A stretch of 64,000 nucleotides of DNA from Thermoanaerobaculia bacterium. GTDB lineage: Bacteria > Acidobacteriota > Thermoanaerobaculia > UBA5066. This document shows positions 11,280 to 42,231 of the stretch, one piece after another (within the stretch, counting starts at the first letter, position 1; each line of letters opens with the position of its first letter). Location: assembly GCA_963719225.1 (NCBI GenBank), contig CAVRAY010000001.1:416001-480000 (forward strand). Direction: 5' to 3'. The notes under the pieces are model-generated. The model saw only the letters and a program-made list of their open reading frames with translations, was not told where the DNA came from and made no database searches. The position numbers and the translations under genes were made by a program.

Positions 11280-11286
11280 TTCGCGC

Positions 11287-11745: not shown

Positions 11746-11755
11746 GACCCGTCCG

Positions 11756-14041: not shown

Positions 14042-14781
14042 CGGAAGAGCGGGTCGTTCCGCCATCCCCACTTGACGGCCTTGAACCGGGCCATGACGCC
14101 GAGGATCGAGAAGCCGTACACGCACGAGTTCCAGAAGTCGATCTGCGAGGCCTCGTCGAAGTACCGCGTCACGATGGGGACCTCGCGGATGCGCATGTTC
14201 TTCCACATGCCCGCGGCGATGATCTCCGTGTCGAAGACGAAGCCGTCCGAGAAGGCTTCGAGGTTCACGCTCTCGAGATAGCGGCGGGAATAGGCGCGGA
14301 GGCCCGAGTGGTACTCGGTGAGGTAGAGGTAGAAGGTGGCGTTCTCGACGGCAGTCAGGAAGATGTTCGCGAGGTACTTCCATTTCGGCATCCCGCCCTC
14401 GAGCGGGCGCCCCCCGAGCATCCTGCTGCCGAACATCGCGTCTTCGTCGCCTCGCGCGATGGGGCCGATCAGGTCGGGGAGGACCGAGGCGTCGTACTGG
14501 TGATCGGGGTGCACCATGACGCAGATGTCCGCGCCCCGCTGGAGCGCTGTCGCGTAACAGGTCTTCTGGTTCGCGCCGTAGCCGCGGTTCTCGGCGTGCG
14601 TCACGACGTGGAGGCCCGGAATCGCGCGCGCGACCTCGACCGTGCGGTCCTTCGAGGCGTCGTCCACGAGGATGATGTCGTCCACCCAGTCCTTCGGGAT
14701 CTCGTTCCACGCCAGGTGCAGCGTCTTCTCGGCGTTGTAAGCGGGCATCACGACGGCCACCCGCTTTCCCTGAATCGGCAT
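14038..14781 (-). CDS. GT2 family polyprenyl-phosphate glycosyltransferase (DPM1-like)
   Basis: VVMPAYNAEKT, LVDDASKD, NRGYGANQKTCY, HPDHQY, GGMPKWKY, EYHSGLRAY, FVFDTE. Confidence 0.9.
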   Translation of the reverse strand: MPIQGKRVAVVMPAYNAEKTLHLAWNEIPKDWVDDIILVDDASKDRTVEVARAIPGLHVVTHAENRGYGANQKTCYATALQRGADICVMVHPDHQYDASVLPDLIGPIARGDEDAMFGSRMLGGRPLEGGMPKWKYLANIFLTAVENATFYLYLTEYHSGLRAYSRRYLESVNLEAFSDGFVFDTEIIAAGMWKNMRIREVPIVTRYFDEASQIDFWNSCVYGFSILGVMARFKAVKWGWRNDPLFR

Positions 14782-14793
14782 CTCCGAGGGATT

Positions 14794-16712
14794 CTAGGGT
14801 GCGGCCGCCTCGCGCACGCGAAAGACCCGGAACCGCGGCTGGAAGCTGCCGTCGGCGCGGCGCGTCCCGGTCTTCGAATCGAGTACCCGCTCGAGAAACG
14901 GCGCCGGGTTCGGAGAATCCGACTCGTGCACCCGCCTCGCGAACATCCGCGCCGTCGGCGTGGGCGGGCGGCCGGCGGCGGCCGCGTAGGCGGGAAGGAG
15001 CGGCGCGAGGTCCGTCGTGACGAGATAGCGGCACTTCGCCGCGGAGAGGATCGCGAGAGCTTCGGCGTCGTCCGTCGCCGTGAAGAGGCGGCATTGCCGG
15101 CGCCAGCCATAGACGAACGGGTCCGCAGCGGACGGCCGCTCGGCGATCGCCGTCACGAAGTGCCCCGCGGACCAGGGAGGCATGACGCCCGGGATCGCGC
15201 CCGGAGCGGGAGGCGGCACGACCGACGGTTCCACCGGCGGCGGATCGAGAACGCGCAGCCGTGCGAAGAGGTCCAGCACGTCGTAGCCGGGTGCGTCCGC
15301 GAAGGCGCGCGCCCGCGCGAGATAGGGGAGGCCGGGCAGGACGACGAGACAGACGGCGAGGGCGATCGGCACAGCGGTACGAGCGCGCGGGGGAGCTGCC
15401 GCGGCGCGACGCGCCCAAGGAGCTCGGCGAGCGCGAGCGCGGCGAAGATCGCGAGGTAATAGACGTTGCGCTGCTGAAAGAGGGCCATCGCGAAAACGGC
15501 GGCCGCGAAGAAGGCGAGAAGGAGGCGGGCGGCGCCTCGCGGCGGCATCGGCCGCCGAAGCGACGCCCGGAGCCACACGAGCGCCGCGAGCGGCACGAGG
15601 AGGAAGCCCGGAGACACCTCGCGCACGGCGCGCTCCAAGGAGCTCCACCCCCGTATGAGCGGCTGACACTCGGCGACGAGCCGCAGAAACTCGGGCGGAT
15701 AGGAAAGGAAGCCGCCTTCCGCGAAGTCACCGGACCCCGCTCCCGCCCCTCCCTTGAAGACGTACGCCCCGCCGTGAAAGACCGAGTCGAGGACGCGCCG
15801 CGCGTTGGGCAGCGCGACCGCGAGGCCGAGGGCCGTGAGAAGCCCCCACAGCGCGCGGCGCCGGAGCGTCGGCGCGCGCGCCGCCGCGAGCGCGAGAAGC
15901 GGCACGGTGGCGCCCGCGAGGAGGAGAGGCTGGAACCAGCCGAAGGAGACGAACGAGAAAGGCATGGGCTCCGCGGGAAGGGTCGCGGCGGCCCCGAGGG
16001 CGACGAGCGCCGTGGCGACGAGGCCCGCCACGGCCGCGGCCTCGCCGAGCGCGAGCGCGGCCCACAGGAACGAGAGGCCGGCGACGAACACGGCGCCCTG
16101 CCACGTGAGGACGGCCAGGGCGATCGCGGCTCCGAAGGGAACGGCCCGCAGGAATCGCGCGTCGCCGCGGGCGGAGGCGGCCCACGCGCCGGCCGCGAGG
16201 ACGAGGAGGAGGTTCAAAGCCTCGGCCACGTGATGGTCGAAATGCCCGAAGCCTCCCCAGAGCACGGCCGCGGGGAGCGCGACGTAGGCGGCCGTCGCGA
16301 TCCGGGCGCGCCGCCGGCCGAACGAGCGCCTCGCCACGGCGAAGAGCGGCAGGATCTGGAGCGCGCCCAGGAGCGCGGGAAGGGTCGCCGCGACCGTGAG
16401 GACTTGTTCCGTCGTCGCCCCGCGTCCGAAGAGAAGGCGCGCCGCGCCGCCCGCGACGAGATCGAACGCCGGTGGCCAGATGAAGACGCCGCCTTCGGGG
16501 TGGTTCAGGTACGGATCGCGATACGGGACGCGGGGGAAGTTCCGGGCGACGGAGACGGTCCGTCTGAGGTGCCCGTAGCAGTCCGGCGACAGGAGGCGAA
16601 AGCCGCGGGAGGTCGCTGCCGGAAAGGGCGCGAGGCGCAGCGCGAGCGCGGCGAGGAACATGCACCACACGAATCGCCCGTCCCGCGAGATGCGTCCGGA
16701 GCGCGCGCTCAC
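14794..16712 (-). pseudogene. STT3/AglB-like oligosaccharyltransferase interrupted by a one-base frameshift near 15370-15420 (pseudogene or sequencing error)
   Basis: Frame 1 (16712 downward): [44 protein letters not shown] and many TM helices. Frame 2 (to 14794): VMPPWSAGHFV..IAERP..ADPF, RYLV. The two halves join if one base is restored. Confidence 0.65.
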
Positions 16713-16762
16713 TCCCGAGAGCGTAGCAGGGCGCCGGGCAACCCTCCCCCTACAATCGCCGG
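16713..16762. promoter_or_regulatory. Back-to-back leaderless-type promoters
   Basis: TACAAT 16751-16756 lies 6 nt before ATG 16763 (+). TG-C-TACGCT (16720-16725) lies 7 nt before GTG 16712 (-). No well-spaced SD. Confidence 0.6.
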
Positions 16763-18493
16763 ATGGTCGAGGGCCGCCGGTTGAGATTCTGGGCCGCCGT
16801 GCTTCTCCTCGCCTCTCTGGGCTCGGCGCTCGTCTTCGATCACACGCGCCTCGACAGCCCGACGATGGACGAGCCGTTCCACACGCTCGCGGCGGCGGAA
16901 TACGCGATCGCGGGCACGTACTACGCGAACCTGGAGCACCCTCCCCTCGTGAAGCTCCTGTCGGGATTCGCGATCCGGGCGGCGGGAGGACGCGCGCCGA
17001 GGATGGAGGTCCCGTTCTCGATGGCGACGGCCGAGCAGCCCAGGCCGTTCAGCTTCAGCTCGCCGCTGCGTCCCGAGACGCTCTTCGCCGTCGCGCGCGC
17101 GCCGGTTCTCGCGCTGTTCTTCCTTCTCGTCGTCGTCGTCGGCGGGGCCGTGCGCTCGTGGGCAGGCGACCTCGCCGGAATCCTCGCGGCCGCGCTCGTC
17201 GCGTTCGAGCCCAATCTCCTCGCGCACGCGGGTGTCGTTCACACGGACCTCGCGGCCGCGCTGGGTTTCTTCGGGACGCTCGTTCTCGCGGTCAAGGCCC
17301 TCGAGCGCCGCTCGCTCGGCTTGTGGGCGGCGGCCGGCGCTGCTCTCGGCGCGAGCCTCGCCGCGAAGTTCTCGTGCGTCCTCCTCGTCCCGATGGTCGC
17401 GCTCCTCGCGCTGACCGGCCTCTTCCGGGAGCGTCGGGCCGCCGCCCGGGAAGGCCGCCTTCCGGATCTCGTCGCCCTCAAGGGGCTCCTTCTCGCGGGC
17501 GCGACGTCGCTCGCGGTCCTCCTCGGCTGCTACGCGATCGCCATGCGGCACATGAGCGGCGGCGAGGCCGCCAAGGCGGTGCGCCTTTTTCTCGTCACGC
17601 GGCAGGCGCCCGAGGCGACGATCGACCGGATCCTCGCGATCTCGCGGCTCGACAAGGAAGCCGGCCACTATGCGGCGGGTCTCGCGGGCATCGCCGTCCA
17701 GAACAAGACGGGCGGCGGCGTGAACACCCTCCGCGGAAAGCTCTCGGTGGACGGATTCTGGGAGTACTTCTTCGTCGCCTTCGCGGTGAAGAGCACGCTC
17801 GCCACGCTGGCGATTCTCCTGATCGCCTGCGCTGCGGGCATCGCGCGAAAGGTCCGCCCCGACCTCGTCCTGCTCACGCTCGTCCTCCCGCCGGCCTATC
17901 TCTTCCTGACCGGCATGGCGACGTCCTACAACATCGGTATCCGCCACATGCTGCCCGTGTACCCGCTCCTCCTCGCGGCAGCCGTTCTCGTTCTGTTCCG
18001 GTCTCTGTCCGCGCGCGCGGCCGCGGTCGTCCTCGCCGTTCTCGCCTCGGGGCAGGTCGTCGAGACCCTCAGCGTCCATCCGCACGAGCTCTCGTTCTTC
18101 AACGTCGCCGCGGGAGGGCCGGCGAACGGCGCGGCATGGCTGAACGACTCCAACCTGGACTGGGGACAGGACCTCGAGCGGCTCGCGCGCCGGCTCGAGG
18201 CGCGCGGCGAGGAAGGACGCACGACGATCGCGTATTTCGGCGGAGGCGACGTGCCGTACTACGCGCCAAAGGCGCGGGTGTTCATCCCGGCGCGGACACC
18301 GCTCACCCCCGGCCTCTGGGCGGTGTCCTCGTTCCTCATGTGCTGCGGGCCGGAGGCGATGGCCTTCCACGGCGATCCGGCCGCCGCCGTGGGCTTCCAG
18401 CAGCTTCGCCGAGAGATCTCCGCGCGCGGAACGCCCGTGGGTCGCGTGGGATACTCCATCGTCCTGTACGACCTGAAAGAAAAGAGCCCATGA
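16763..18493 (+). CDS. ArnT/PMT-like GT-C (GT39/GT83) membrane glycosyltransferase
   Basis: [52 protein letters not shown]; many TM helices. Confidence 0.8.
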
Positions 18494-19902
18494 AGCTGTC
18501 GATCGTGATGCCGGCGTACAACGAGCGCCGGACGATTCGCGAGATCCTCGCGCGGGTCAAGGCCGTCGACCTCGGAGACCTCGAGCGCGAGATCCTGATC
18601 GTGGACGACGGCTCGGAGGATGGCACGCGGGAGCTCCTCAAGGAGCTCGACGGCAAGGACGGCGTCCGCGTCCTGCTGCAGCCGCGCAACATGGGGAAGG
18701 GAGCGGCCGTCTGGGCCGGCATGCGGGCCTCGACGGGAGACCTCGTCGTCATCCAGGACGCGGACCTCGAGTACGACCCGGAGGAATACCCGGTGCTGCT
18801 CGGGCCGATTCTCGCCGGCAAGGCGGACGTCGTTTACGGATCCCGCTTCCTGGGAAGCCCTCACGGACACCGCGTCCTCTATTACTGGCATACCGTCGGA
18901 AACCGGCTGCTCACGCTCATGTCGAACCTCTTCACGGACCTGAACCTCTCCGACATGGAGACCTGCTACAAGGTCATGACGCGCGGCGTCGTGGACCGGC
19001 TCGATCTCAAATCGCAGCGTTTCGGCGTGGAGCCCGAGATCACGTGCAAGGTGGCGCGCATGCGCGCCCGGATCTTCGAGGTCCCCATCTCCTACAGCGG
19101 ACGAACTTACGAAGAGGGCAAGAAGATCGGCGCCAAGGACGCCTTCCAGGCCGTCTGGACGATTCTCAAGTACTTCCGCTGGGAGGCTCCGGACAGCGAC
19201 GTCGGAGCGATCACGCTGCGGCGGATGGGGGAGCTCTCCGTCTACAACCGCTGGCTTCACGATCGGGTCGACGGGTGGCTCGGGTCGCGTGTCCTCGAGG
19301 TCGGCTCGGGAGTCGGAAACCAGACCCGTTTCTTCGCCGACAAGGAACGGGTCATCGCCTCGGACATCGAGCCGCACTACGTTCGCGAGCTCCGCACACG
19401 GTTCGAAAAGCACGGAAACGTCCGCGTCGCCTCGTTCCGTTTTCCGCTCACCCCCCAGGACCGCGCCGATCTCGAAGCGGAGCGGATCGACTCGATCGTC
19501 TGCATGAACGTGCTCGAGCACATCGAGAACGACGCGGGAACGCTCGCGGATTTCTGCCGCGTCCTCCAGCCGGGAGGACACCTTGCGCTTCTCGTGCCCG
19601 CTCTTCCCGCCCTCTACGGCACGCTCGACGAGAACCTGCGCCACTACCGCCGCTACGAGAAGGGCGCCCTCGCGACCCTCGTGGGACACGCGGGATTCAC
19701 GGTGGAATCCGTCCGGTACCTGAACCGCCCCGGCGTCCTGGGCTGGTGGCTGAACTCGCGCGTCCTCAAGCGCCGCGTCCTTCCGAAGAGGCAGCTGGGG
19801 GCCTTCAAGTGGATCATGCCGCTGCTGGAGGCAGAGGAGAGGACGGAGCCGTCGTTCGGGATGTCCCTCCTCGTCCTCGCCCGGAAACCCCAAGCGGCGT
19901 GA
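18490..19902 (+). CDS. Bifunctional GT2 glycosyltransferase / class I SAM-dependent methyltransferase
   Basis: ATGA overlap. GT2 motifs [41 protein letters not shown]; MT motifs [22 protein letters not shown]. Confidence 0.88.
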
Positions 19903-22133
19903 AGCAAAAGGCGCCGGACCTGGTACCGGCTCTCGTCCTCGTGTTCGGCGCCGCGGCGCTTCGCTTCGCGCCCTTTCTGGCCGGCGGCACGCTGTACCGC
20001 CGCGACGCGGGCTTCTTCTTCGTCCCCTGGAGGCTCGTTCTCGCGAGATTCTTCCGGGCGGGCGAGGCGCCGTTCTGGAACGAGTGGATGTCGGCCGGAA
20101 GGGCCTTCGCGGCCGATCCCAACGCCGCGGTTTTCTGGCCCCTGTCGCCCCTTCTCCTCGTCGTCTCGCCGACCGTCCTCGCCCTCGCGAACGCCGCTCT
20201 CCTTCTGGGCGTCTTCTTCTTCGCGCTCCGCCGAATCGGGCTCTCGGCGACGGCGTCCGGCGCCGGGACGCTCGTCCTTCTCTTCTCGGGTGTCTTCCAG
20301 GCGCTGCCTGTTTACGCGACGACGTGCGCGGCGGCCGTTCCGCTTTCCCTAGCGCTCGTCGAGGCCCCGCGCCTTTCCGCGCGCGAGCCCGCCATCCGCC
20401 GCCGCGCCTGTGCTTTCGCGGCGCTCGCCTTCGGCCTTTCCGCGCTCGGCGGCGAGCCCGCGGTGACGCTGATGGGCGCCGCGGCCTTCGTCGCGGTCGC
20501 GATCGGCGCGGCAAAGGGATCGCGCCCGCGCGCGACGGCCGGCGGCGTCTTCGCGCTCGCCCTCGGGATCGGGATCGCCGCGATCCAGGTCCTTCCGGCG
20601 GCCCTCGAGGTGGCCCGGTCCGCTCGTGGCGCGGGGATGCGTCCCGAGCACGGCGCCCTCTTCTGGTCCGTGCGTCCGGCACGCGTCCTGACGCTCCTCG
20701 AGCCCCGCCTCACGGGAGATCCGCCGGGGGACACGGCCTCGTTCTGGGGCTCGGGCACGTTCGACGCGGGAAATCCGTACTTCGAGGACCTCGCGCTCGG
20801 CCTCGTGCCCCTCCTTTTCGCGGCGGCCGCGTGCCGCGATCGGCGCGGGCGCGCGGCGCTTCTCCTCGCGGGGTCGGGAACGGTTCTTTCCTTCGGGCGG
20901 TTCCTGCCAGGCTACTCGGTCCTCGCCGCGGCGCTCCCGGTGATCCGGTATCCGGAGAAGTGGTGGCTGCTCGTGACGCTCGCGCTCGCGGCGGCGGCGG
21001 CGGTCGGCGTCGAGGCAGTCTTTTTAGGCGAGGCGGAGGTTCGGGAATCGGCGCGAAGGATTTTGCTGAAGACCGCCGTGGGAATGGCTCTCGTCTGCGG
21101 CGCGCTGCTCGCTTTGGCGTTCGGCGCTGAAGATTTTCTTAGAAAGGGCATATGGGCTGTGGGACTGGGCGCCGGATCCACTTCTGCTGCGGCCGTGGCT
21201 TCGGCTCTTCGCCCCCACCTCATTCTAGGAACTCTTAGTCTTGTCGTCATCGCGGCACTCACATCGCTCGTCACGCACAACTGCCAGCCCGAACCCCTCT
21301 TCACCTTCGAGGAGAAGCTGCGCAGCCCGCTGCTTCTCGCCGGCATTCTCGGCGTGCTGTTCTTCACCGACGCCGCGCGGCGCGTCGCCGGAACCTGCCC
21401 CGCGGGGCCGCCGGATCTCTACCGCAAGGAGACGCCCGCGGTCGCGCTCGTCGGGAAGGAGGCCGGTGCCGGCCGTTTCTACGACGACGGTGCGGACGAT
21501 GCCCCGACCGCGGCGCGAAGGACGCGCGAGGCCGGCGGCCTCGACCTCCTTCGTCCCGTCACGGGAACGGCTTTCGGCATCCGGTACGCGGGGGAGAACG
21601 ATGTGGACCGAATGACGGCGGCCCCGTCGGTGCGGTTCGCGAGCCAGACGGCGGGCCTGGGCTGGTGGCCGGAGAAGGTCGCGCGCCTGCGCCGGCTCGG
21701 AGTTGCCATCGTCCGCACCGCGGTTTCGCCTCCCGATCCGACCGGCGTCGTCGAGCTCGGGCGCTTCGGGGGCGATCGGATCCTGCGCATCGAGGGAACG
21801 CGCGACGAGTTCGCGGTCCTGCCGGCGGGAGGCGGACGCGTGACGGTCGAGGAACGCGGCGCGAATTTCGCGCGTCTCGCCCTCCACGTCGCGCTGCCCG
21901 CCGCGATCCTTTCCGTCTCGCGGAGCTTCGATCCGAACTGGCACGCCCTCCTGGACGGGAAAGAGCTCGTCCTCCGCCCCGCGGACGGTTTTCTGACGGC
22001 CGCGGACGTGCCGCAGGGAGACCACGAGCTCGTCCTTCGGTACCGCAATCCCGCTTTCGCGGCCGGAGGGGCGCTGTCGATCGCATCGCTTCTTTTCGTC
22101 GCTCTTCTCGCACGATCTCCCGGCGGGCCATGA
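19899..22133 (+). CDS. YfhO-like GT-C membrane glycosyltransferase
   Basis: GTGA overlap. YRRD..FFFVPW, PFWN....GRAFAADPN...[30 protein letters not shown]. Confidence 0.75.
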
Positions 22134-24235
22134 AGGCCTCTCTCCGCGCCCGCCTCCCGCTTGCGGCGGCGATCGTCCTCGCTCTCCTGCCGTTCCGCGA
22201 GTTCCTCGGTTCCGGAGTGCCGTCCGGCCGCGACCTCCTTTTCTATTTCTTTCCGCTCAAAGCCCACCTCGTCGAGGCGGTGACGCGCGGCGAGATGCCG
22301 TGGGTGGACCGTTTTCGATGGGGCGGATCGCCGCTCCTGGGCGCGCCTTCGGCGGCCCCCTTCGACCCCGCGAACATCCTCTTTCTGGTCCTGCCGCTCG
22401 GTGCGGCCATGAAGGCGTGGATCCTCCTCCACCTCGGCGTCGCGCTCGCGGGTTTCGCCGCGTTCACGCGGCGCCTCGGGCTCGAGCGCGGGCCGGCAGC
22501 CGTCGCCGGGCTCGTCTTCGCGCTCGGTGGCACGACCGTGTCGCTCGCCGCGTTTCCACCCACGCTTTCCGCCCTCTCGATCCTCCCCTGGTTCGCCGCG
22601 TTCGTGTTCGACCTCGTCCGTGCACCGGGAAGGCGCACGACGGCGGCCGTCGCCGCCTCCGCCGCTCTGATCCTCCTCGCCACGTCGCCCGAGCTCATTT
22701 TCTTCTCGGCGTGTGTCGCCGTTGCGGTCTTCTTCTCGGCGCGCCGCGAGGCCGGGACCTGGCGCCAGGCGATGCGTCCTCTGACTCTCCTCGCGCTGAG
22801 CGCGCTTCTTGCCGGCGGCCTCGGCGCGATCGCGCTCCTGCCGGCGGCCGCCACCGCCGAGCGCAGCGTCCGCTCGCCGGGGGGCGGCCTGGGAACCGGA
22901 GCCGCGTCGATCAAGCCGCTCGCTGTCCCGCGACTTCCCGAACTCCTCTTCGACGGGGTGGTCGCGGACTGGACGGTCGTCGCGGTGGTGCCGCGCGTCC
23001 CGGACTATCCGTTTCTCCCCTCCCTGACGCCGGGGCGCGTCGCGTGGGCGCTCGTCCTCGCGGGGCTGCTCCGAAAAGGCACCGGGCGGATCGCCGCAAT
23101 CGGTATCGCTCTTTTCGGAACCCTGCTCGCGCTCGGCGACGCGACGCCGTTCTTCGGCCTCGTGGCAAGAGCGGTCCCTCTCCTCGCGCGGATCCGGTAC
23201 CCGGAAAGACACGTGATCCTCGCGGGCTTCGGTCTCGCCTGGCTCGCCGCTCTCGGCATCTCGCGGCTCGCAGCTGCCGTCTCGCCTCGCGCCCGGAAGG
23301 TCGTCCTCGTGCTCCTCGCCCTTGCGGTCTTCGTGGACCGCGAAGGAGTCGCGCGCCGCCTCTCGCCGGTCGAGGACGCGTCCCTCCTGACAAAACGGCC
23401 TCCTCTTCTCGCGTCGTTGCCGGAGGCTTCCGGGGACGCGCCGCCACCTCGTCTCTTCTTCAACGATGCCTACCAGCCCGTTCCGATGTACGACACGCGC
23501 GACATCGTGGCCGTGAGCCGGGTCGGGTGCCAGACGCTCCTTCCCGCGTACGCGTCGCTCTTCGGCGTCGGCTACCAATTCGAGCTCGACTACGACCTCT
23601 CCCTCTCCGCGGAGGCGTTCGAGTGGACGCGGCTCCTTTCGAAGGCGGTGCCGAAGACGCCTTCTCTCGCTTTGCGTTTCGTCCGCGCCGCCGGTGTTTC
23701 GGCAATCCTGAAGAGCGATCGCGAGGCGGACGGGCGCTACCACCCGCACCTGATGAAGATCTTCAATCCCCTGCCGCCGTACCGCTTCGCGGCGCGTGTC
23801 GTCGCCTCCGGCGATGCGTCGTCGGTCTTCTCGAAGCTTCTCGAGGACGGCTTTTCCGCCGACACGGCGTACGTCGACACCGCGCTGCCGGGCGTTCCCG
23901 CTCTTCCCGCGGCTGGCCGGATCCTCTCAGCGGTCGACCGGCCTTCCGGGCTCCTCCTCGACGTCGAGGTGGACGGTCCGGCGCCGGGTTTCCTCATGCT
24001 CTACCGCCTGCGTGAAGCGGCGGAAGAGGCGACGCTCGACGGGCGTCCCGTTCCGGTCTCGCAGGTGGCCTTCGGGTTCGCGGGCCTCCCGGTCCCGCCG
24101 GGGAGACATGCTTTGCGATTGCGGCCCGACACGCGCTGGGTGAAGATCGGGGCGTTGATCTCCACCCTCACGGCGCTCGGTCTGGCCGCCGCCCTGCTCT
24201 CTCCCAGGCACCGCGCCGCATCCGGGAGCGCATGA
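22130..24235 (+). CDS. YfhO-like GT-C membrane glycosyltransferase
   Basis: ATGA overlap. GRDLLFYFFPLK, GEMPW..F.WGGSPLLG, IRYPER, VPPGRHALRLR and terminal TM helix. Confidence 0.75.
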   Translation: MKASLRARLPLAAAIVLALLPFREFLGSGVPSGRDLLFYFFPLKAHLVEAVTRGEMPWVDRFRWGGSPLLGAPSAAPFDPANILFLVLPLGAAMKAWILLHLGVALAGFAAFTRRLGLERGPAAVAGLVFALGGTTVSLAAFPPTLSALSILPWFAAFVFDLVRAPGRRTTAAVAASAALILLATSPELIFFSACVAVAVFFSARREAGTWRQAMRPLTLLALSALLAGGLGAIALLPAAATAERSVRSPGGGLGTGAASIKPLAVPRLPELLFDGVVADWTVVAVVPRVPDYPFLPSLTPGRVAWALVLAGLLRKGTGRIAAIGIALFGTLLALGDATPFFGLVARAVPLLARIRYPERHVILAGFGLAWLAALGISRLAAAVSPRARKVVLVLLALAVFVDREGVARRLSPVEDASLLTKRPPLLASLPEASGDAPPPRLFFNDAYQPVPMYDTRDIVAVSRVGCQTLLPAYASLFGVGYQFELDYDLSLSAEAFEWTRLLSKAVPKTPSLALRFVRAAGVSAILKSDREADGRYHPHLMKIFNPLPPYRFAARVVASGDASSVFSKLLEDGFSADTAYVDTALPGVPALPAAGRILSAVDRPSGLLLDVEVDGPAPGFLMLYRLREAAEEATLDGRPVPVSQVAFGFAGLPVPPGRHALRLRPDTRWVKIGALISTLTALGLAAALLSPRHRAASGSA

Positions 24236-29518: not shown

Positions 29519-29929
29519 ATGAGCGTCTTCATGAGCGGGAGACTGACTTCCCCCACGTCCACCGAGCTCGTCCACGGCCCGTCCGGAGCCGTTCTCGAGA
29601 CCACGGCTCCGAGGGACAACGGCGGCGACGGGAGCCGCTTCTCGCCTACGGACCTCTGCACCGCCTCGGCCGCCTCGTGCGCCGCGACGACCGTGAGCCT
29701 CTACGCGACGCGCAACGGAATTCCGCTGACCTCGATCGGGTTCGAGATCGAGAAGCACATGACCGCCGAGCCCCCGCGGCGCATCGCCAGGCTCGTGGCG
29801 CGCTTTCGCGTTTCGTCCCCGTGCGGCGACGAGGACTTCCAGAAGCTCGTCCAGGTCGGCAAGGCTTGTCCCGTCTTCCGCTCGCTGCACCCCGACGTCC
29901 TCATCGAGGACGTCTGGGAGCGGGGTTGA
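29519..29929 (+). CDS. OsmC-family protein
   Basis: TTAPRDNGGDG..FSPTDL...AASC and ACPV..SL Cys pair. Confidence 0.88.
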   Translation: MSVFMSGRLTSPTSTELVHGPSGAVLETTAPRDNGGDGSRFSPTDLCTASAASCAATTVSLYATRNGIPLTSIGFEIEKHMTAEPPRRIARLVARFRVSSPCGDEDFQKLVQVGKACPVFRSLHPDVLIEDVWERG

Positions 29930-29958: not shown

Positions 29959-30933
29959 TCAGGAGACGTTGGAGAAAGAGCCCGTCTCTCCCAGGGGAAA
30001 CCGCTCGGCCTCGATCTCGTAGCCAGCGGCCTGCCACGCGTCGAGCCCCCCTTCCAGCGGACGGACGAGCGTGAACCCGCGGTCCATGAGGAGGCGTGCC
30101 ACACGGGCCGCCGACGCTTCATTCGGTCACGTGCAGTAGAGGACGATTTCCCGATCCGTCGGCAGGTGCGAGATCTTCTCGTCCAGCTCGGCGACGTCGG
30201 CGACGATCGCCCCCGGGATTCGCCGCGGGTCGCGAGCGCGCGCGCTGCCGGACCGCACGTCGACGATCACCGGAGCCTCGCCGTCGTCCATGAGCCGGCG
30301 CAGATCGGTCGCGCGAATGCGCGCCATGCGCAGGACCTTGTAAAACCGCCTCCGCTGCATCCACTTCGCCGCGATGTAGAGGAGGAGCGCGAGGCCCAGG
30401 AGGACGAGAGCGCTTCCACCGAGCCCCGAGAGAAACGAAAGAGCCCGCTCGACGGCGCCATGGAAGAGGGCGCCGAGCGCCAGAGCGCCGCCTGCCCAGA
30501 GCACCGTGCCTCCCGCCGTGAACAGGAGGAACCGCGAAAGCGGCGCCTTCGCGGCGCCCGCGAGAGGAGGCGCGACGGTGGAATAGCCGGGGATGAACTT
30601 CGCGACGAGAAGGGACGCGAGGCCGTACGTGTCGAAGAGGCCCTCGGTCTGGCGCACGCAGGAATCCGGAGAGAGAGAAACCTTGCAGAGAGTCTTGAGG
30701 ATCTTCTGTCCGTAGCGGCGTCCGAGGAGGTACCAGACCGTGTCGGCCGCGACCGTCGCCACGAGGGCGGCGGCGAGGAGCTTTCCGAACTGCAGCCTGC
30801 CGTCCGCCGCCAGCGCTCCCGCCACGACGAGCGTCGGGACAGCGGGAACCGGGATGCCGAGCTGCTCGACGAGGACGTTCAGGAAGACGAACCCGACGCC
30901 ATGCTCGAGGATGAGGGCCGTCAGCTCGTTCAC
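29959..30933 (-). CDS. DedA(VTT)-rhodanese fusion, probable selenoprotein (Sec at UGA 30127-30129)
   Basis: DedA motifs EQLGIPVPA, ADTVWYLLGRRYG, VAKFIPG. The rhodanese domain VDVRS..IPGA..IVLYCT-TGA-PNEASAARVARLLMDRGFTLVRPLEGGLDAWQAAGY continues in frame to a stop at 29959. Confidence 0.85.
30093..30112 (-). promoter_or_regulatory. Putative bacterial SECIS hairpin
   Basis: GGCG-GCC[CGUGU]GGC-A-CGCC starts 15 nt after the UGA: 7-bp stem with one bulge, GU in the apical loop about 22 nt from the UGA. Confidence 0.7.
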
Positions 30934-30934
30934 G

Positions 30935-31495
30935 TCAGCTCACGCCCGTCGACGAGGAGGAGACGGACGCCGGATCGACGCCGAGGCGCGCGAGGGCGCG
31001 CTCCCAGAGTCCCGTCACGTCGTGCGTGAAGACGAGCGCTGGGTCCCAGGGCAGGACGAGCCAGGTTCCTTCCTCCATCTCGCTCTCGAGCTGGTCCGCC
31101 GCCCAGCCCGAATACCCGAGGACGAGGAGACCCGGCGTGCCGGACGCCGGCGGCGCGGCGAAAAGCCTGGGAAGAATCTCCGCGGCGACCGAGACGCGCA
31201 ACCCGGGAGCCATCTCGACGGATTCGACGCCGGGCATCTCGTCGGTGAAGAGCGCGACGAGGCCGTTCGTGAAGATCGGGCCGCCGACGCGAAGCGGCGT
31301 CTCGGGATGGACACTCGTGTCCAGAGGCGGAGCGAGGAGCGAGACCGCCGGCTCGCCGAGGAACCGGTTTACGACCCAGCCCAGGGCGCCTTCGCGCGTG
31401 TGGTGGCCCATGACGACGACCGTCTTCTGGAAGTTCGGATCGAGCATGACGGGCGCGGCGAGAAGCAGATAGGGCGTCGTGAGGGACTCGACCAC
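30935..31495 (-). CDS. YqgE/AlgH-family protein (UPF0301)
   Basis: LLAAP.M.DPNF..TVV...HH..GALG.VVN, GGP, LGYSGW..DQLE.E...G.W. Confidence 0.9.
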   Translation of the reverse strand: MVESLTTPYLLLAAPVMLDPNFQKTVVVMGHHTREGALGWVVNRFLGEPAVSLLAPPLDTSVHPETPLRVGGPIFTNGLVALFTDEMPGVESVEMAPGLRVSVAAEILPRLFAAPPASGTPGLLVLGYSGWAADQLESEMEEGTWLVLPWDPALVFTHDVTGLWERALARLGVDPASVSSSSTGVS

Positions 31496-31538: not shown

Positions 31539-32156
31539 TCAGGTCGCGAACGCCTGCCAGGCCGCACGCGCGACCCGGGCGATGGCCTCCTCGCGGGACC
31601 CCGCATTCCGGCCGCCTCGCGTGAAGACGACGATGGCGAGATGGGTCCCATCGGGAAGCCTCACGATCCCCGCGTCGTTCGCGCAGCGCCCGACGGTGCC
31701 GGTCTTGTCGAGGACCTCCGTTCCTTTCGGCACGCCCGCGCGCAGGCGGCGGTCGCCCGTCGCGCAGCGGCGCATCGCATCGAGGATGCGGTCCGTCGAG
31801 GGGCGCGAAAGCAGGAGCGAGCCCGGACGCGCTCGCGGCGCTCCTCGCCCGGCGGGCCGGATCTCGACTTCCTCGTCGAGACGGAGAGTGCCTTTCTCGG
31901 CTGCGCCGAAAACGGCGATCGCGACCGGGAGCTTGAAGACGCTTGCCATCTGGAAGCGTCCCTCCCCGCGGTGCGACAGGCGCCTGCCGGATTCGACGTG
32001 AACGGCCGTGACGCCCACGATCGCCCCGCCGGATTCACGGGCCGCGGCGCCGACGGCGGCGGCGAAGGCCTTGGAGGACGAGTCGGGAGGGTCGGGAGCG
32101 GGCGACGAGAGCGCGAGGGCGGCGAGTGCGACGCTGACGTGGAATCCTGCGTTCAT
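31539..32156 (-). pseudogene. Class A beta-lactamase/serine hydrolase remnant with large internal deletion
   Basis: FQMASVFK (SxxK) and DKTGT..ANDAGIV are present, but the SDN loop and omega loop are missing. Only 205 aa. Confidence 0.7.
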
Positions 32157-36225: not shown

Positions 36226-38805
36226 ATGGTTCGAAGCCAGCGCTTCTTCTCCGTCATCTTCGCCCTCGTTGCGATCGGGTTCGCATCGGGTCGGGTCTTC
36301 GCGGCCGACTTCTACGCATCGCCGACGGGGACGACGAGCACGGCGGCGGGCACCGGCAGCCTTTCGAACCCATGGGCTCTCGCCACGGCGCTCGCGCATC
36401 CGGCGGCCGTTCAGCCGGGGGACACCATCTGGCTTCGCGGAGGTACGTACACGGGCCGCGTGTCGAGCTCCCTGACGGGCACGGCCGTGGCGCCCATCAA
36501 GGTGCGGCCTTATCAGAGCGAGCGCGCGAAGCTCGACGGCGGCCCGGGGCCGCTCGTCGCGACGCTCACGGTCTACGGCCAGTACACGTGGTACTGGGGC
36601 TTCGAGGTCTTCTCCTCCGAGCCCAACCGGCGCTCGACGCAGGACGGCTCGTGGCCCACGGATCTCAATCGCGGCTCGTGCGTCGGGATCGCGCAGGACA
36701 TCCCACACGTCGGGATCCGGCTCATCAACCTCGTCCTCCACGACGGGACCGACGCGATCGGGAGCTTCCAGAGCCACCAGGACGGCGAGATCTACGGCAA
36801 CCTCATCTTCAACAACGGCTGGAACGGCGCCACGGACCGCGGCCACGGCCACGGCCTGTACGTCCAGAACCAGGCCGGCACCAAGAAGATCTCGGACAAC
36901 GTGATCTTCAACCAGTACGGCGGCGGGATGCAGATCTACGGCTCTGCGGCGGCTTATCTCGACAACATCCAGGTGACGGGCAACACGATCTTCTCCGCCG
37001 GCTGGCCGTCCGCCTACGGGTGCGACCGCAACTTCCTCTTCGGAGGCGACCGAATCGCCACGAACGGAACGGTCGTCTCGAACTCCTTCTATTACCCCGA
37101 CTCCTTCGGCGCCTGCACGTCCGGCGGCTCGAACATCGGCTACAACGCCGGCGTGTCGAACTTCACCATCCAGAACAACTGGTTCGCGAACGGCGACGGC
37201 GGAATCTCGTCGTACTTCTTCGGCGCGATCACCGGCCTCACGATGACGGGCAACCACTTCCTCCAGGACATCTCGGGCGTCGTCGCGCCGGCGTCGTATC
37301 CGTCGAACACCTATCACGGCACCACGAAACCCACCGGGACGTACGTTTACGTTCGGCCGAACGCTTACGAGATTGGGCGCGCGAACATCACGGTCTTCAA
37401 CTGGGACAAGAAGAGCACCGTCGCCGCGGACTTGAGCGCGGCGCTCGCCGTGGGACAGGCGTTCGAGGTGAGGAACGCGCAGGACTTCTTCGGTGCGCCG
37501 GTCCTCACGGGCACGTACGCCGGCGGCTCGATCACCTTGCCGATGTCGGGGCTGACGGTCGCGGCTCCGATCGGCGGGATCGCTCCGCCTCCCACCGGGC
37601 CCGAATTCAACGTCTTCGTCGTGCTCCCTCTCGCGGGCGCGCCCACGTGCTCCTTCACGCTCGGGGCGCTGTCGGCGTCGACGGCGGGCTCGGGCGGGAC
37701 GGGGAGCGACTCCGTGTCGACCGGCGCCACGTGCGGGTGGGCGGCGACGAGCAACGCGGCGTGGCTCACGATCTCGGGCGGCGCCTCGGGCATGGGCAAC
37801 GGCTCGGTCAACTATTCGGTCGCGGCGAACCCGAACTGCACCTCCCGCTCCGGATCGCTCACGATCGCGGGCCAGACGTTCATGGTCACGCAGAGCGCCG
37901 GCAGCCCCTCGGCCTCGATCAGCCCGACGGCGGCGACCACGGGTGCGGGCGCCGGCGGCGGCTCGATCGCCGTGACGATCGGTACGGGCTGCGCCTGGAC
38001 GGCGACGAGCAACGCGGCGTGGCTCACGATCTCGGGCGGCGCCTCGGGCATGGGCAACGGAAGCGTGACCTATTCGGTAGCCTCCAATCCGACCTGCACC
38101 TCCCGTTCCGGTTCGCTCACGGTGGCCGGGAAGACCTTCACCGTCACGCAGAGCGCCGGCAGTGCGACGGCCTCGATCAGCCCGACAGCCACCTCGGTGG
38201 GCGCGGGCGCGAGCGGCGGCTCGGTCGCCGTCACGATCGGCACGGGCTGCGCGTGGACGGCCTCGAGCAATGCGGCGTGGCTCACGGTCTCCGGCGGCGG
38301 CACGGGCAACGGCACGGCGACGTACACCGTCGCGTCCAACAGCGGGTGCGCGCGCACCGGCACGTTGACGGTCGCCGGCCGGACGTTCACGGTGAGCCAG
38401 TCCGCGGGCGCGTCGTGCAGCGGCGCGTCCGGGTTCTACCCGGTGACGCCCTGCCGCGCGATCGACACGCGCCAGGCGACGGGCCCGCTGGGCGGGCCGA
38501 TCCTCGCGGCCGGAGCGCGGCGCGTCTTCCCGATCACCACCTCGGTCTGCGGAGTGCCTTCGACGGCGAAGTCCATCGCGGTCACGGTGACCGCCGTCCG
38601 ACCCGCGGCGAACGGCACGCTTCACGCCTACCCGGGAGACCTCGCTCCCACGGCGGCCTCGATCCTGAGCTTCCGGAAGAACCGCACGCAGGCGGCGACC
38701 GCGCTGCTCCTCCTCGCGACCGATGGCTCCGGTGGCCTCGGGGTCCAGAACGAGTCGACGGGGACGCTGGACGTCATCGTGGACGTGAGCGGCTACTTCA
38801 GGTAG
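36226..38805 (+). CDS. Secreted right-handed beta-helix protein + 3 BACON-like domains + C-terminal PCRxxDTR domain (paralog 1)
   Basis: Signal peptide, FYASPTG..PW.LATAL...PGDTIWLRGGTY, Asn-ladder repeats (GNLIFNNG, DNVIFNQ), W.ATSNAAWLT repeats, PCRAIDTR...DVSGYFR. Confidence 0.8.
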   Translation: MVRSQRFFSVIFALVAIGFASGRVFAADFYASPTGTTSTAAGTGSLSNPWALATALAHPAAVQPGDTIWLRGGTYTGRVSSSLTGTAVAPIKVRPYQSERAKLDGGPGPLVATLTVYGQYTWYWGFEVFSSEPNRRSTQDGSWPTDLNRGSCVGIAQDIPHVGIRLINLVLHDGTDAIGSFQSHQDGEIYGNLIFNNGWNGATDRGHGHGLYVQNQAGTKKISDNVIFNQYGGGMQIYGSAAAYLDNIQVTGNTIFSAGWPSAYGCDRNFLFGGDRIATNGTVVSNSFYYPDSFGACTSGGSNIGYNAGVSNFTIQNNWFANGDGGISSYFFGAITGLTMTGNHFLQDISGVVAPASYPSNTYHGTTKPTGTYVYVRPNAYEIGRANITVFNWDKKSTVAADLSAALAVGQAFEVRNAQDFFGAPVLTGTYAGGSITLPMSGLTVAAPIGGIAPPPTGPEFNVFVVLPLAGAPTCSFTLGALSASTAGSGGTGSDSVSTGATCGWAATSNAAWLTISGGASGMGNGSVNYSVAANPNCTSRSGSLTIAGQTFMVTQSAGSPSASISPTAATTGAGAGGGSIAVTIGTGCAWTATSNAAWLTISGGASGMGNGSVTYSVASNPTCTSRSGSLTVAGKTFTVTQSAGSATASISPTATSVGAGASGGSVAVTIGTGCAWTASSNAAWLTVSGGGTGNGTATYTVASNSGCARTGTLTVAGRTFTVSQSAGASCSGASGFYPVTPCRAIDTRQATGPLGGPILAAGARRVFPITTSVCGVPSTAKSIAVTVTAVRPAANGTLHAYPGDLAPTAASILSFRKNRTQAATALLLLATDGSGGLGVQNESTGTLDVIVDVSGYFR
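37645..38410 (+). repeat. Three tandem ~258-bp BACON-like repeats
   Basis: GAGCAACGCGGCGTGGCTCACGATCTCGGG at 37749 and 38007. Unit: C.W.A.SNAAWLT.SGG.....GNG...Y.VA.N....R.G.LT.AG.TF.V.QSAG. Confidence 0.85.
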
Positions 38806-38873
38806 GCCCTCCGCCGCCGGCCGGTCCGAAAAACGATACCTCTCCGGGCACAGTCATAGTACGATTTCCGATA

Positions 38874-40673
38874 ATGGTCCCCCGGAGTATTCGCTGGTGG
38901 TGTGCCCTTGGGGTGCTCGCGGCCGCGACGCACGCGCCCGCGGCCGATTTCTACGTCGCGACGAACGGGACGTCGAGCACGGCGGCCGGCACCGGCACGC
39001 TCGGCAACCCCTGGAGCCTCGCGACGGCCTTCTCGGCGCCGGCGGCTGTGCACCCGGGCGACTCGGTCTGGCTTCGTGGCGGGACGTACCGGGGACGCTT
39101 CCGGAGTCTTCTCACCGGCTCACCGCTCGCTTCGATCCGCGTGCGGCCTTACCCGGGCGAGCGGGCGCTCCTCGACGGCGGCCCAGGGCCGATCCAGCCG
39201 ACGCTGACGATTTCGGGCCAGTACACGTGGTACCAGGGACTCGAGATCTTCTCGTCGGATCCCGATCGCCGATCGAGCCAGAACGGCTCCGCGCCGTCAG
39301 ATCTGAACCGGGGCTCGTGCGTCGGGATCGCCCAGGACGCGCCGCATGTCGGCATCAAGCTCATCAACATGATCCTGCACGACGGCACCGACGGGATCGG
39401 ATCGTTCGAAAGCCACCAGGACGCGGAGATTTACGGAAACCTCATCTTCAACAACGGGTGGGACGGCGCGACGGATCGATCCCACGGCAACGGCATCTAC
39501 GCCCAGAACATCACGGGAAACAAGCGAATCGCCGACAACCTCGTCTTCGACAACTACGCCGAGGGGTTTCAGATCTACGGCAGCGCGGTCGCGTTCCTCG
39601 ACAACATCGAGGTGACGGGGAACGCGATCTTCTCGAACGGGTCCCCGTCCGTTTTCGGCTGCAGCCGCAACCTCCTCTTCGGGGGAGACACCATCGCGAA
39701 CAACGGGCAAATTCTCTCGAACATCGTCTACCTCGCTCCCTCGGGAGGTTCCTGCACCGTCGGGGGCTCGAACGTCGGGTACAACGCCGGCGCGAACTCC
39801 TTCATGATCCTGAACAACTGGTTCTCGAACGGCGACGGCGGCTTTGCCGCCTATTTCATCGGGTCGATCACGAATCTCACGATGACGGGGAACGACTTCG
39901 TTCGCGACATCTCGGGTGTGGTCAATCCGGCTTCGTTTCCCGCGAACACGTATCACCACGGCGCACGGCCGACCGGGACGAAAGTATTCGTGCGTTCGAA
40001 CGCGTACGAGCCGGGCCGGGCGAATATCGTCGTCTTCAACTGGGGCCTGCTTCCGAAGGTGAACGTGGACGTCAGCGCCGTCCTCGTCGCCGGCTCGCTC
40101 TTCGAGGTCCGGAACGCGCAGAATTTCTTCGGTCCGCCGGTTCTGAGCGGCGTCTATTCGGGAGGGACGCTCTCTCTGCCGATGTCGGGGCTGTCGGTCG
40201 CGGGACCGATCGGGGGCCGGACGCCGCCCCCGACGGGTCCCGAGTTCAACGCGTTCGTTCTCCTCTCGATCGCGGCCGGCGCGCCTCCATCGGCCAGCGC
40301 GTTCTTCCCGGTCACACCCTGCCGCGTCCTGGACACGCGCGGCGCCGTCGGTCCAAAGGGGGGGCCGGCGCTCGGGGCGTTCGGCGTCCGCGTCCTTCCG
40401 GTCCTGACGTCCGGCTGCGGGGTCCCTTCCGGGGCCAAGGCCGTCGCGGTCAACGTGACGGCGGTGTCCCCGACTGCGGCCGGGGAATTCCAGACCTTCC
40501 CGGGCGACCTCCTTCCGGGGACGGCCGCGGTCGTCTCCTTCCGCGCGGGCAGGACTCGGGCCGTGGGCGCGGTCGCGCGGCTCGCGACGGACGGATCCGG
40601 GACTCTCGGAATCCTAAACGATTCGCCGGCGCCGACACACGCGGTCGTGGACGTCAGCGGCTACTTCAAATAG
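38874..40673 (+). CDS. Secreted beta-helix protein + C-terminal PCRxxDTR domain (paralog 2)
   Basis: ATG 8 nt after TACGAT, signal peptide, collinear with paralog 1 but without BACON repeats; ends DVSGYFK. Confidence 0.8.
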   Translation: MVPRSIRWWCALGVLAAATHAPAADFYVATNGTSSTAAGTGTLGNPWSLATAFSAPAAVHPGDSVWLRGGTYRGRFRSLLTGSPLASIRVRPYPGERALLDGGPGPIQPTLTISGQYTWYQGLEIFSSDPDRRSSQNGSAPSDLNRGSCVGIAQDAPHVGIKLINMILHDGTDGIGSFESHQDAEIYGNLIFNNGWDGATDRSHGNGIYAQNITGNKRIADNLVFDNYAEGFQIYGSAVAFLDNIEVTGNAIFSNGSPSVFGCSRNLLFGGDTIANNGQILSNIVYLAPSGGSCTVGGSNVGYNAGANSFMILNNWFSNGDGGFAAYFIGSITNLTMTGNDFVRDISGVVNPASFPANTYHHGARPTGTKVFVRSNAYEPGRANIVVFNWGLLPKVNVDVSAVLVAGSLFEVRNAQNFFGPPVLSGVYSGGTLSLPMSGLSVAGPIGGRTPPPTGPEFNAFVLLSIAAGAPPSASAFFPVTPCRVLDTRGAVGPKGGPALGAFGVRVLPVLTSGCGVPSGAKAVAVNVTAVSPTAAGEFQTFPGDLLPGTAAVVSFRAGRTRAVGAVARLATDGSGTLGILNDSPAPTHAVVDVSGYFK

Positions 40674-40707
40674 GAATTCTCGTCCGGACAATGGAGCCGA
40701 AGGCACG

Positions 40708-42231
40708 ATGACTTCCATAGGCGGTCGCCGCCGCATGTCTCTTCGCCTCGCCATCCTCGCGCTTTCTCTGGGGCGGGTCCCGGCGGCCCGCGCGGCGGAG
40801 TTCTTCGTCTCGCCGACGGGGACTCCGGGCGAGAGCCCGGAAGCGGGTACGCGGGCGCACCCGTGGGATCTCGCGACCGCGCTCGCGCACCCTTCCGCCG
40901 TGAAGGGAGGCGACACGATCTGGCTTCGCGGCGGAACCTACGTGGGCCGGTTCGAAAGCGCGCTCGCCGGATCCGTCGACGCTCCGATCGTGGTCCGGCA
41001 GGCACCGGGTGAGCGCGCGCGCATCGACGGCGGCCCGGGCCCGCTCGAGGCGACTCTCACGATCGGCGGCCAGTACACGTGGTACTGGGGCTTCGAGGTC
41101 TTTTCCTCCGGAGGGCGGCGGACCTCATCCGAGGACGGCTCCGCCCCCGGAGATCTGAACCGCGGCTCCTGCATCGGCGGAGCGCAGGATCGACCCCACC
41201 CCGGCATCCGGCTCGTCAATCTCGTCCTCCACGACGGGACGGACGCGATCGGCTTTTTCGAAGCCGAGGAGGATGCGGAGATTCACGGGAACCTCATCTA
41301 CAACAACGGCTGGGACGGCGCCACGGACCGCGGGCACGGAAACGGGATGTACATCCAGAACCGTACCGGGAAAAAGAGGATCACCGACAACATCGTCTTC
41401 GGCCAGTATGAGCAGGGGCTGCAGATCTACGGCTCGGACGCGGCGTATCTGGACAACATCGAGGTCATCGGCAACTCCATCTTCGAGAACGGCGCTCCTT
41501 CGGCATACGGGCGGTCGCGCAACCTCCTCTTCGGAGGCGGCCGGATCGCACACGACGGGCGAATCGAATCGAACGTGACGTATCACGCCGACTCGCCCGA
41601 GGGCTCCGTGACGACCGGCGTGAGCCTCGGGTACGACGCCGGGATCTCGCGCTTCACGATCCTGAACAACTGGTTCACCGCCGGGGGCGGGCTCTTCTCG
41701 TGCGATTTCAGCGGGGCGATCGACCAGCTCACGATGACGGGAAACGACTTCGTCCGCGGCGTCGACGGGATCGACCTTTCTGCCTATCCGAACAACGTCT
41801 ACCACGGCGACGTCAAACCGACGGGATCGAACGTCTTCGTGCGTGAGAACGCCTACGAACCGGGTCGCGCGAACATCACGGTCCTGAACTGGGACCGGCT
41901 CCCGTTCGTCGACGTGGACGTTTCCGGCGTCCTCGCTCCCGGGTCGGCGTTCGAGATCCGGAACGCCCAGGATTTCTTTTCGCCGCCCGTCGTGGCCGGC
42001 GTCTTCAGCGGAGGGATCATTCGGGTTCCGTTGTCGGGACTGACGGCCGCGAGCCCGACCGGCGCGTCGCGTGCCGCCGTGCCGACCGGTCCCGAGTTCA
42101 ACGTGTTCATCCTCTTGCCGTACCGCCTCCCGTGCACGTTCGACGACGGCGCCTTGCGCGCCGGCACGCCGCCGCGCTGCGGCGCGACGGCCACGGGAGG
42201 GACGGTTGTCACTCACCGCCCCGCGCGCTGA
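40708..42231 (+). CDS. Secreted beta-helix protein (paralog 3)
   Basis: Signal peptide and the same core (GDTIWLRGGTY, NNGWDGATDRGHGNG, EIRNAQDFF, GPEFNVF); short tail. Start may be 40735. Confidence 0.8.
   Translation: MTSIGGRRRMSLRLAILALSLGRVPAARAAEFFVSPTGTPGESPEAGTRAHPWDLATALAHPSAVKGGDTIWLRGGTYVGRFESALAGSVDAPIVVRQAPGERARIDGGPGPLEATLTIGGQYTWYWGFEVFSSGGRRTSSEDGSAPGDLNRGSCIGGAQDRPHPGIRLVNLVLHDGTDAIGFFEAEEDAEIHGNLIYNNGWDGATDRGHGNGMYIQNRTGKKRITDNIVFGQYEQGLQIYGSDAAYLDNIEVIGNSIFENGAPSAYGRSRNLLFGGGRIAHDGRIESNVTYHADSPEGSVTTGVSLGYDAGISRFTILNNWFTAGGGLFSCDFSGAIDQLTMTGNDFVRGVDGIDLSAYPNNVYHGDVKPTGSNVFVRENAYEPGRANITVLNWDRLPFVDVDVSGVLAPGSAFEIRNAQDFFSPPVVAGVFSGGIIRVPLSGLTAASPTGASRAAVPTGPEFNVFILLPYRLPCTFDDGALRAGTPPRCGATATGGTVVTHRPAR

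Follow-up and report, generated by a model that had tools for sequence, protein, structure and literature searches.

The fusion gene and its surroundings

The stretch of DNA analysed here (the window; 64,000 nucleotides) carries on its minus strand a gene in which a DedA/VTT membrane domain is joined to a rhodanese-fold domain. Its reading frame contains a single in-frame TGA (30129-30127) in the context ...IVLYCT*PNEASAARVA...PLEGGLDAW.... The ORF obtained with translation table 11 comprises 268 aa and halts at YCT-TGA, from where 55 further codons lead to a second TGA. The features of the gene, in window coordinates, are the following:

29959..30933, minus strand: DedA/VTT-rhodanese fusion gene; 324 aa if TGA269 is read as selenocysteine (Sec); GTG start at 30933, TGA stop at 29961-29959
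30358..30933, minus strand: DedA/VTT membrane domain, residues 1-192; Pfam PF09335 at residues 29-155, 54.2 bits (gathering cut-off 33.9)
30658..30687, minus strand: Cys83-x8-Cys92 pair (LCKVSLSPDSC) in conserved columns, at helix ends in the structural model and predicted to lie on the cytoplasmic side
30025..30312, minus strand: rhodanese-fold domain, residues 208-303; Pfam PF00581, 50.3 bits (cut-off 22.2), complete in the read-through product
30133..30135, minus strand: Cys267, at the position of the canonical rhodanese catalytic Cys; aligns with the YC of YCGSGFRS in PDB 6mxv
30127..30129, minus strand: in-frame TGA, predicted Sec269; CxU motif, two residues past the canonical catalytic Cys
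30093..30112, minus strand: SECIS-type hairpin; stem +15..+21 / +27..+34, loop CGUGU at +22..+26, conserved core at +19..+29 (30108-30098)

An earlier note on this DNA had proposed that the frame runs on past YCT-TGA and completes the rhodanese domain, and the Pfam match on the minus strand bears this out. An AlphaFold2 model of the 324-aa read-through product, built on a 126-sequence alignment, gave a pLDDT of 88 and a pTM of 0.67; owing to the latter value the orientation of the two domains is uncertain. Residues 267-269 form the loop between a strand (263-266) and a helix (270-284) of this model. Foldseek returned rhodanese-domain structures only, including GlpE (1gmx; TM 0.78 by target), and no solved DedA structure was found among the PDB sequence matches or the Foldseek matches.

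Upstream lies a YqgE/AlgH (DUF179) gene (30935-31495, minus strand), which ends one base ahead of the start codon of the fusion gene, and the two genes likely share one transcript. YqgE/AlgH is the upstream neighbour in 21/21 same-genus loci and in none of the 92 other loci. A scan for promoters and terminators revealed nothing above chance. On the other side, a convergent OsmC-family gene (29519-29929, plus strand) encodes two Cys and has no in-frame TGA; it matches the model of an OsmC-related (seleno)protein weakly, with 29.5 against 95 bits. A class A beta-lactamase-like ORF of 205 aa (31539-32156, minus strand) matches in two pieces and looks internally deleted by its sequence, an open frame from the same genus having about 317 aa.

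Probable recoding of the in-frame TGA

The genome assembly (4.75 Mb, 97% complete, 6% contaminated) consists of 2 contigs, here C1 and C2. The search for selA, selB, selC and selD suggested in the earlier note detected all four genes above their curated cut-offs: selA at C1:575085-576416 (443 bits), selB from C2:235298 on (296 bits), selD at C1:3641398-3642363 on the minus strand (335 bits) and selC, encoding tRNA-Sec with a TCA anticodon, at C1:2786564-2786658 (59.9 bits). The selD gene itself has one in-frame TGA with a downstream hairpin. Since TGA is the main stop codon of this genome (about 68% of 1405 long-ORF stops) and the only tRNA with a TCA anticodon that was found is tRNA-Sec, an alternative genetic code does not explain the reading frame.

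Searches in 61 related genomes revealed 46 full-length matches, a count that includes the source genome itself and one unpublished genome (G037), and each of the 46 contains exactly one TGA. Among 401 genomes drawn from the phylum, 72 have a match to the fusion at E <= 1e-30. The aligned codon in 115 Acidobacteriota loci is TGA in 76, TGC or TGT in 36 and another codon in 3; homologs with Cys at this position, which the earlier note had described, are present and read YCxCP. The frame stays open for 37-85 codons past the TGA in 74 of 75 loci, and the exception stops at a contig edge. A search of GTDB contigs matched at least 588 loci, and the 80 best of them comprise 41 TGA and 39 Cys forms; these 41 TGA loci belong to Acidobacteriota (29), Betaproteobacteria (8) and others (4). 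An in-frame UGA is thus aligned to Cys of homologous proteins in both sets. With the site masked, the resulting tree requires at least six U/C switches; it is unrooted, includes long-branch joins flagged by FastTree and does not distinguish gain from loss of Sec. Excluded from this tree are 27 loci that are near-duplicates or partial, one frameshifted locus (L243) and the 29 loci from Acidobacteriota in the GTDB search; the locus of the unpublished genome (L056) is likewise excluded from it and from the motif, codon-usage, conservation, neighbour and hairpin-filter counts.

The TGA form follows the presence of selA. Of the 75 genomes carrying the TGA form, 74 yielded a selA gene, the sole miss being a 480-contig assembly, as against 3 of 27 genomes of the Acidobacteriota set without this form. 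For 50 genomes outside this set the corresponding values are 10/11 (TGA) and 9/39 (Cys). The genomes compared are kin rather than independent samples, and these co-occurrence counts therefore overstate the support.

The hairpin downstream of the UGA begins after 15 nt and consists of a stem of 7 bp with one bulge and a 5-nt loop, CGUGU, which follows a spacer of 21 nt; the folding energy of the 33-nt segment is -11.8 kcal/mol. The published consensus for bacterial SECIS elements describes a loop of 3-9 nt starting 16-37 nt past the UGA with a G in the first two loop positions, a stem of 4-16 bp and an MFE <= -7.5 (PMC13188914 Fig. 2), and the hairpin of the fusion gene, with G as the second loop nucleotide, agrees with it in all these respects. 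Its folding energy is not beyond chance, as the z-score of the 70-nt fold is -0.16. A filter on bSECIS geometry alone was discarded as a SECIS test, since 30 of 36 Cys genes passed it along with 73 of 74 TGA genes. The sequence of the hairpin, in contrast, separates the two forms: the motif GCCCG(T/G)G(T/C)GGC occurs at +19..+29 in 73/75 TGA genes and in 0/36 Cys genes. The Arg codon at codon +8 of the TGA genes, which lies in the loop, is CGT in 55, CGG in 19 and never CGC, against 6% CGT and 51% CGC genome-wide. Across 22 same-genus loci, a single codon is used at 11 of 114 invariant four- or sixfold-degenerate sites, and eight of these 11 fall at codons 265-280. Within the 80 best loci of the GTDB search, a 3-bp stem with a CG(T/G)G(T/C) loop is found in 41/41 TGA genes and 0/39 Cys genes. 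The closing pair of this stem is C-G in 31 of the 41 and G-C in 10, mostly betaproteobacterial genes, which amounts to a double synonymous change; the swap may be a single ancestral event. The SECIS signal is one of conservation and covariation, not of energy.

The GU-looped hairpin and the CxU selenoprotein postulated in the earlier note are hence both supported, the latter by the decoding machinery, the TGA/Cys exchange and the conservation of the hairpin; its expectation that the UGA should recur in relatives also held. We conclude from these comparisons that UGA269 is very probably recoded as Sec. The UGA would be decoded by the genome's own SelB and tRNA-Sec by means of the downstream hairpin. 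Of the named proteins in the databases, those of Thermoanaerobaculia come closest, and most of the best 120 database matches are 268-aa forms; 26 of 149 distant representatives likewise end at the TGA site. These truncated entries, together with TGA being the commonest stop codon here, speak for a true stop. The same TGA is, however, followed by a conserved open domain in the 76 loci, exchanges with Cys alone, tracks selA and precedes a covarying hairpin. A sequencing error was addressed with independent sequence, in which the earlier note had proposed to look for TGC or TGT: 40 contig pieces from 4 public runs with at least 90% likeness, which derive from relatives and not from reads of the source strain, show no other letter at 30127-30129. 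With the sole TCA tRNA found being that for Sec, we regard a genuine stop, an error of sequencing, a pseudogene lesion and an alternative code all as extremely improbable explanations of the TGA. Under recoding, the databases cut the gene at 268 residues, and its true product is very likely a 324-residue inner-membrane selenoprotein.

Further in-frame TGAs were observed in the genome. The formate dehydrogenase alpha subunit FdhA (C1:733651-736698, minus strand; 1355 bits) has one, with a downstream hairpin. A peroxiredoxin of the BCP/PrxQ type (C1:116187-116780, plus strand) has its TGA at 116472, giving TxxU at the peroxidatic site, and a hairpin of 7 bp with its loop beginning at +22, in register with that of the fusion gene. 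A small protein with a signal-peptide-like N-terminus (C1:208248-208841, minus strand; TGA at 208487) carries the UxxC motif LPG-U-PVC, followed by a hairpin whose CGUGA loop is close to that of the fusion gene. It has no NCBIfam match at E 1e-4 and, judged by its sequence features, may be a thioredoxin-like selenoprotein that is exported and so far uncatalogued. When the whole genome was scanned by codon bias for TGAs that are read through, 26 candidates emerged, most of them adjacent genes; FdhA, the peroxiredoxin and the UxxC protein were among them, but the fusion gene and selD were missed, and the scan is hence no census. ARAGORN revealed two tmRNA genes (C2:222382-222743 and C2:609793-610153) whose tags differ slightly, which would agree with either the 6% contamination figure or a duplication. 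A further clade of the fusion, divergent with about 30-35% identity (L116, L117, L119-L131), comprises TGA forms reading YCT-U-[ALI]RE, which carry the same hairpin core, and Cys forms, some of which are second copies in genomes without selA.

The predicted CxU site and the conserved cysteines

Selenocysteine at this rhodanese position is already catalogued, and it is the DedA-fused architecture that is absent from the catalogues examined. Of the hidden selenoprotein announced in the earlier note, the annotation of the gene is indeed hidden, but the Sec site is not. The best NCBIfam match of the fusion (E 3e-24) is NF041203, rhodanese_LYCAU, listed as rhodanese-like selenoprotein 'form 3, CxU' among 119 families (PMC13188914 Table 1) and identical with 'COG0607 form 2' (PMC9312934). 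Its representative, TKB26178.1, is a stand-alone protein with the sequence LYCAUPNE (PMC12013277 supplement). The fusion shares its fold and CxU site and reads LYCTUPNE, in agreement with the pattern LYCx[CU]P. The representative, however, has about 150 aa and by eye a signal-peptide-like N-terminus, whereas the rhodanese domain of the fusion follows a multi-helix DedA domain and is likely cytoplasmic. The fusion, not being stand-alone, also scores below the NF041203 cut-off of 115 bits, with 84.9 bits for the whole protein and 86.9 for the domain alone.

Cys forms of the fusion are known as 'DedA family protein/thiosulfate sulfurtransferase GlpE'. They have the same two domains and the same four Cys positions, are 50-60% identical and occur in Betaproteobacteria, Gammaproteobacteria and Acidobacteriota; in the protein described here, Sec replaces the second Cys of their CxC. 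PA1209 of P. aeruginosa shares the architecture. No published function of a DedA-rhodanese fusion was found in the literature examined. Sec in membrane or membrane-fused proteins has precedents in the predicted selenoproteins YeeE/YedE, the TsoB rhodanese/DsbD-like fusion, SaoP and a MerT-like protein (PMC13188914 Table 1), although their membrane domains are unrelated and their Sec motifs differ. DedA, VTT or SNARE is mentioned neither in the main texts of PMC13188914, PMC9312934, PMC13326102, PMC12013277 and PMC13745706 nor in four deep-Sep supplements. Full-text searches turned up no listed paper on a Sec form of the fusion; a prior annotation may exist in RefSeq or BSepDB records. In the 2026 selenoprotein review the string 'Acidobacteri' has 0 occurrences. 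With the fusion, the catalogue of selenoproteins gains a DedA-fused architecture, from a phylum that goes without mention in that review. The fusion also calls for a correction of annotation at scale, most close database homologs being 268-aa forms that end at the active site. The surprise is moderate, as the Sec site itself was known.

Compared with classical rhodaneses of the GlpE and PspE type, the fold and the position of Cys267 are alike. The alignment of Cys267 with the loop Cys of solved rhodaneses makes Sec269 the second residue of CxU and not the canonical catalytic position. The loop C-T-U-P-N-E-A-S is one residue longer than the classical one, includes a second Cys/Sec, and lacks Gly-x-Arg; an acidic residue, Glu or Asp, stands at 272 in 92/106 distant representatives. 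The catalytic Cys of GlpE-type enzymes is present and their six-residue anion-binding loop of the CxxGxRS type is not, and the match to NF001195 reaches 22.9 of 102 bits. A plain thiosulfate sulfurtransferase activity is doubtful because the loop is without Gly and Arg and has the acidic residue 272. Rhodanese phosphatases and arsenate reductases of the Cdc25/Acr2 type are defined by a Cx5R motif, and this assignment was rejected, as position 273 is Ala and not Arg.

The protein has no Cys positions other than C83, C92, C267 and C/U269, which are conserved in 114, 112, 114 and 111 of 114 loci, respectively. Among 106 distant representatives (about 35-50% identity), C83 is found in 99 and C92 in 98, and 80 retain all four positions; in the 26 representatives truncated at the TGA site, both C83 and C92 are kept without exception. 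The coupling between the pairs is not strict: five of the 106 have the rhodanese CxC without either DedA Cys, three have lost one DedA Cys, and 11 have the DedA pair but no CxC that could be recognised, several of these genes apparently being frameshifted or truncated. In the model, C83 lies at the end of helix 76-84 and C92 at the start of helix 89-109, with a four-residue turn between them. The pair is absent from YghB and from the canonical DedA of this genome in the alignment. By the positive-inside rule, with GRRYG preceding C83/C92 and QRRRFYK preceding the rhodanese domain, both Cys pairs would face the cytoplasm.

As a Sec residue is nearly always redox-active, the rhodanese-fused DedAs are likely to be so too. 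The near-invariant Cys83/Cys92 pair suggests a four-thiol relay and offers four exact residues to probe in tractable Cys homologs. We favour, with slightly less than even confidence, a membrane-anchored thiol/selenol relay. Cys267 and Sec269 would take up an oxidising equivalent or a sulfane sulfur or selenium atom, as a selenenylsulfide or persulfide, and exchange this load with Cys83/Cys92, predicted to lie on the same, cytoplasmic, side of the DedA domain. The DedA domain would anchor the Cys267/Sec269 site, which may in turn gate it. At the second position, Sec would be superior to Cys as a nucleophile or resolving group, and Cys would do the same job where selA is missing. Extending this, we tentatively propose, as a possible though somewhat unlikely case, that the DedA-rhodanese fusions form a distinct functional class of DedA proteins: redox- or chalcogen-gated membrane devices that move or detoxify reactive sulfur or selenium species, the CxU site relaying directly onto the Cys83/Cys92 hairpin within the DedA domain. 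The class would represent a selenoprotein that is widespread in Acidobacteriota, occurs in some Betaproteobacteria and is systematically mis-annotated, Sec and Cys having been exchanged several times. Such a gated device may possibly account for the long-unexplained link between DedA and selenite uptake.

Among 113 loci (flanks of 1.5-2.5 kb) no conserved sulfur or selenium gene points to a substrate. Outside the genus there is no common neighbour; the recurrent ones are lineage-specific and include kdsA/kdsD, UbiD-like and efflux genes, named by eye from their sequences. This bears on a further reading of the selenoprotein, in which a soft metal or a metalloid (Cu, Hg, Zn, selenite, tellurite) is bound by the four thiol/selenol ligands and this site is coupled to transport by the DedA domain, for instance in selenite uptake or handling. 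The four conserved Cys/Sec positions with the conserved Glu/Asp272 would suit it, as would Lys112 and Glu23, kept at the re-entrant helices, and five papers cite a DedA protein of Cupriavidus metallidurans CH34 as tied to selenite uptake. The CH34 protein is known here from these citing papers, however, and may or may not be rhodanese-fused, and neither metal-resistance nor sel genes occur among the recurrent neighbours of the 113 loci. A role in selenium supply for Sec synthesis is itself unlikely, as most carriers of the Cys form are without selA. On balance a metal or metalloid site appears fairly unlikely.

The DedA domain and the glycosylation cluster

The earlier note had placed a glycosylation island about 6 kb from the fusion gene and suggested a possible lipid-carrier flippase beside it. 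The distance was correct, as the cluster ends at 24235, 5.7 kb from the fusion gene. It extends over 8321-24235 and contains PMT-, STT3- and GT2-type genes, two weak YfhO matches (below the Pfam cut-off) and an ArnA-like formyltransferase gene. Its gene content makes it a candidate locus for bacterial glycosylation of proteins or of the cell surface, and it is conserved across the genus.

The fusion could then recycle undecaprenyl phosphate (UndP) for this GT-C/GT2 cluster. Rhodanese fusions belong to COG0586, the subfamily with the UndP flippases, although their link to UndP is termed 'unclear' by Todor et al., who describe E39, D51, R130 and R136 of YghB as essential (PMC9881974). With UptA, YghB/YqjA, PA4029 and DbcA the fusion has in common the DedA/VTT core and the Glu at E39, and differs from them by the loss of D51 and R136, Lys in place of R130, and the additional Cys pair and rhodanese domain. 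Aligned with E. coli K-12 YghB, Glu23 corresponds to E39, which is mostly kept across the fusion family, and Lys112 is a conservative replacement of R130, with Lys in 109/111 loci. The D51 position, a column that is less certain as it lies near a 3-residue gap, is never Asp or Glu in 111 loci and mostly shows hydrophobic or small residues or a gap. The R136 position is Ser118 here and Ser, Asn, Ala or Gly in the family, with Arg in 0/111 loci and 0/106 representatives. The acidic and basic tip residues that characterise UndP flippases are accordingly incomplete in the fusion. Matches to the UptA models are weak, 47 and 31 bits against cut-offs of 250 and 300. The genome encodes two more DedA proteins, and one of them (C1:1228076-1228447), a canonical DedA, retains all four YghB residues (E/D/R/R).

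The cluster lies 5.7-16 kb away in 14/14 same-genus loci, but is absent within 9 kb in 6/6 loci from other families, and it stands on the opposite strand with five unrelated ORFs between. The intervening OsmC (13/14), M23 and M20 genes are also syntenic in the genus, and none of them occurs within 9 kb in the 6/6 other-family loci. As this synteny is confined to the genus and shared by unrelated genes, the proximity reflects inherited gene order and not partnership. In excerpts from a study of P. aeruginosa, deletions of dedA genes other than PA4029 left fosmidomycin sensitivity unchanged, PA1209, likened to the fusion by Pfam architecture only, being among these 'other' genes (PMC12893004). 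The flippase suggestion is thus not supported, given the lost D51 and R136, the separate canonical DedA and a synteny confined to the genus, and we regard recycling of UndP for the cluster as very unlikely.

DedA proteins without the acidic and basic tip residues are taken by Todor et al. as probable phospholipid scramblases (PMC9881974). The fusion might accordingly be a selenoprotein whose DedA domain scrambles or transports a lipid other than UndP, with the rhodanese CxU as a redox switch. The core motifs and helices of the DedA domain are intact, and kdsA/kdsD-like genes adjoin the fusion in some sister families. This neighbourhood is limited to certain lineages, however, and provides no pointer to a substrate, and the same excerpts report no envelope phenotype for the PA1209 deletion and no phenotype for any dedA deletion except PA4029/PA4011 (PMC12893004). 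We consider a scramblase or transporter of another lipid unlikely and retain the relay as the preferred reading.

Elsewhere in the window, within 36226-42231 and 47935-58828, we observed three tandem paralogous secreted beta-helix proteins, the first of them with BACON repeats, and a pair of large ORFs beside polysaccharide genes which appear PKS/NRPS-like by eye.
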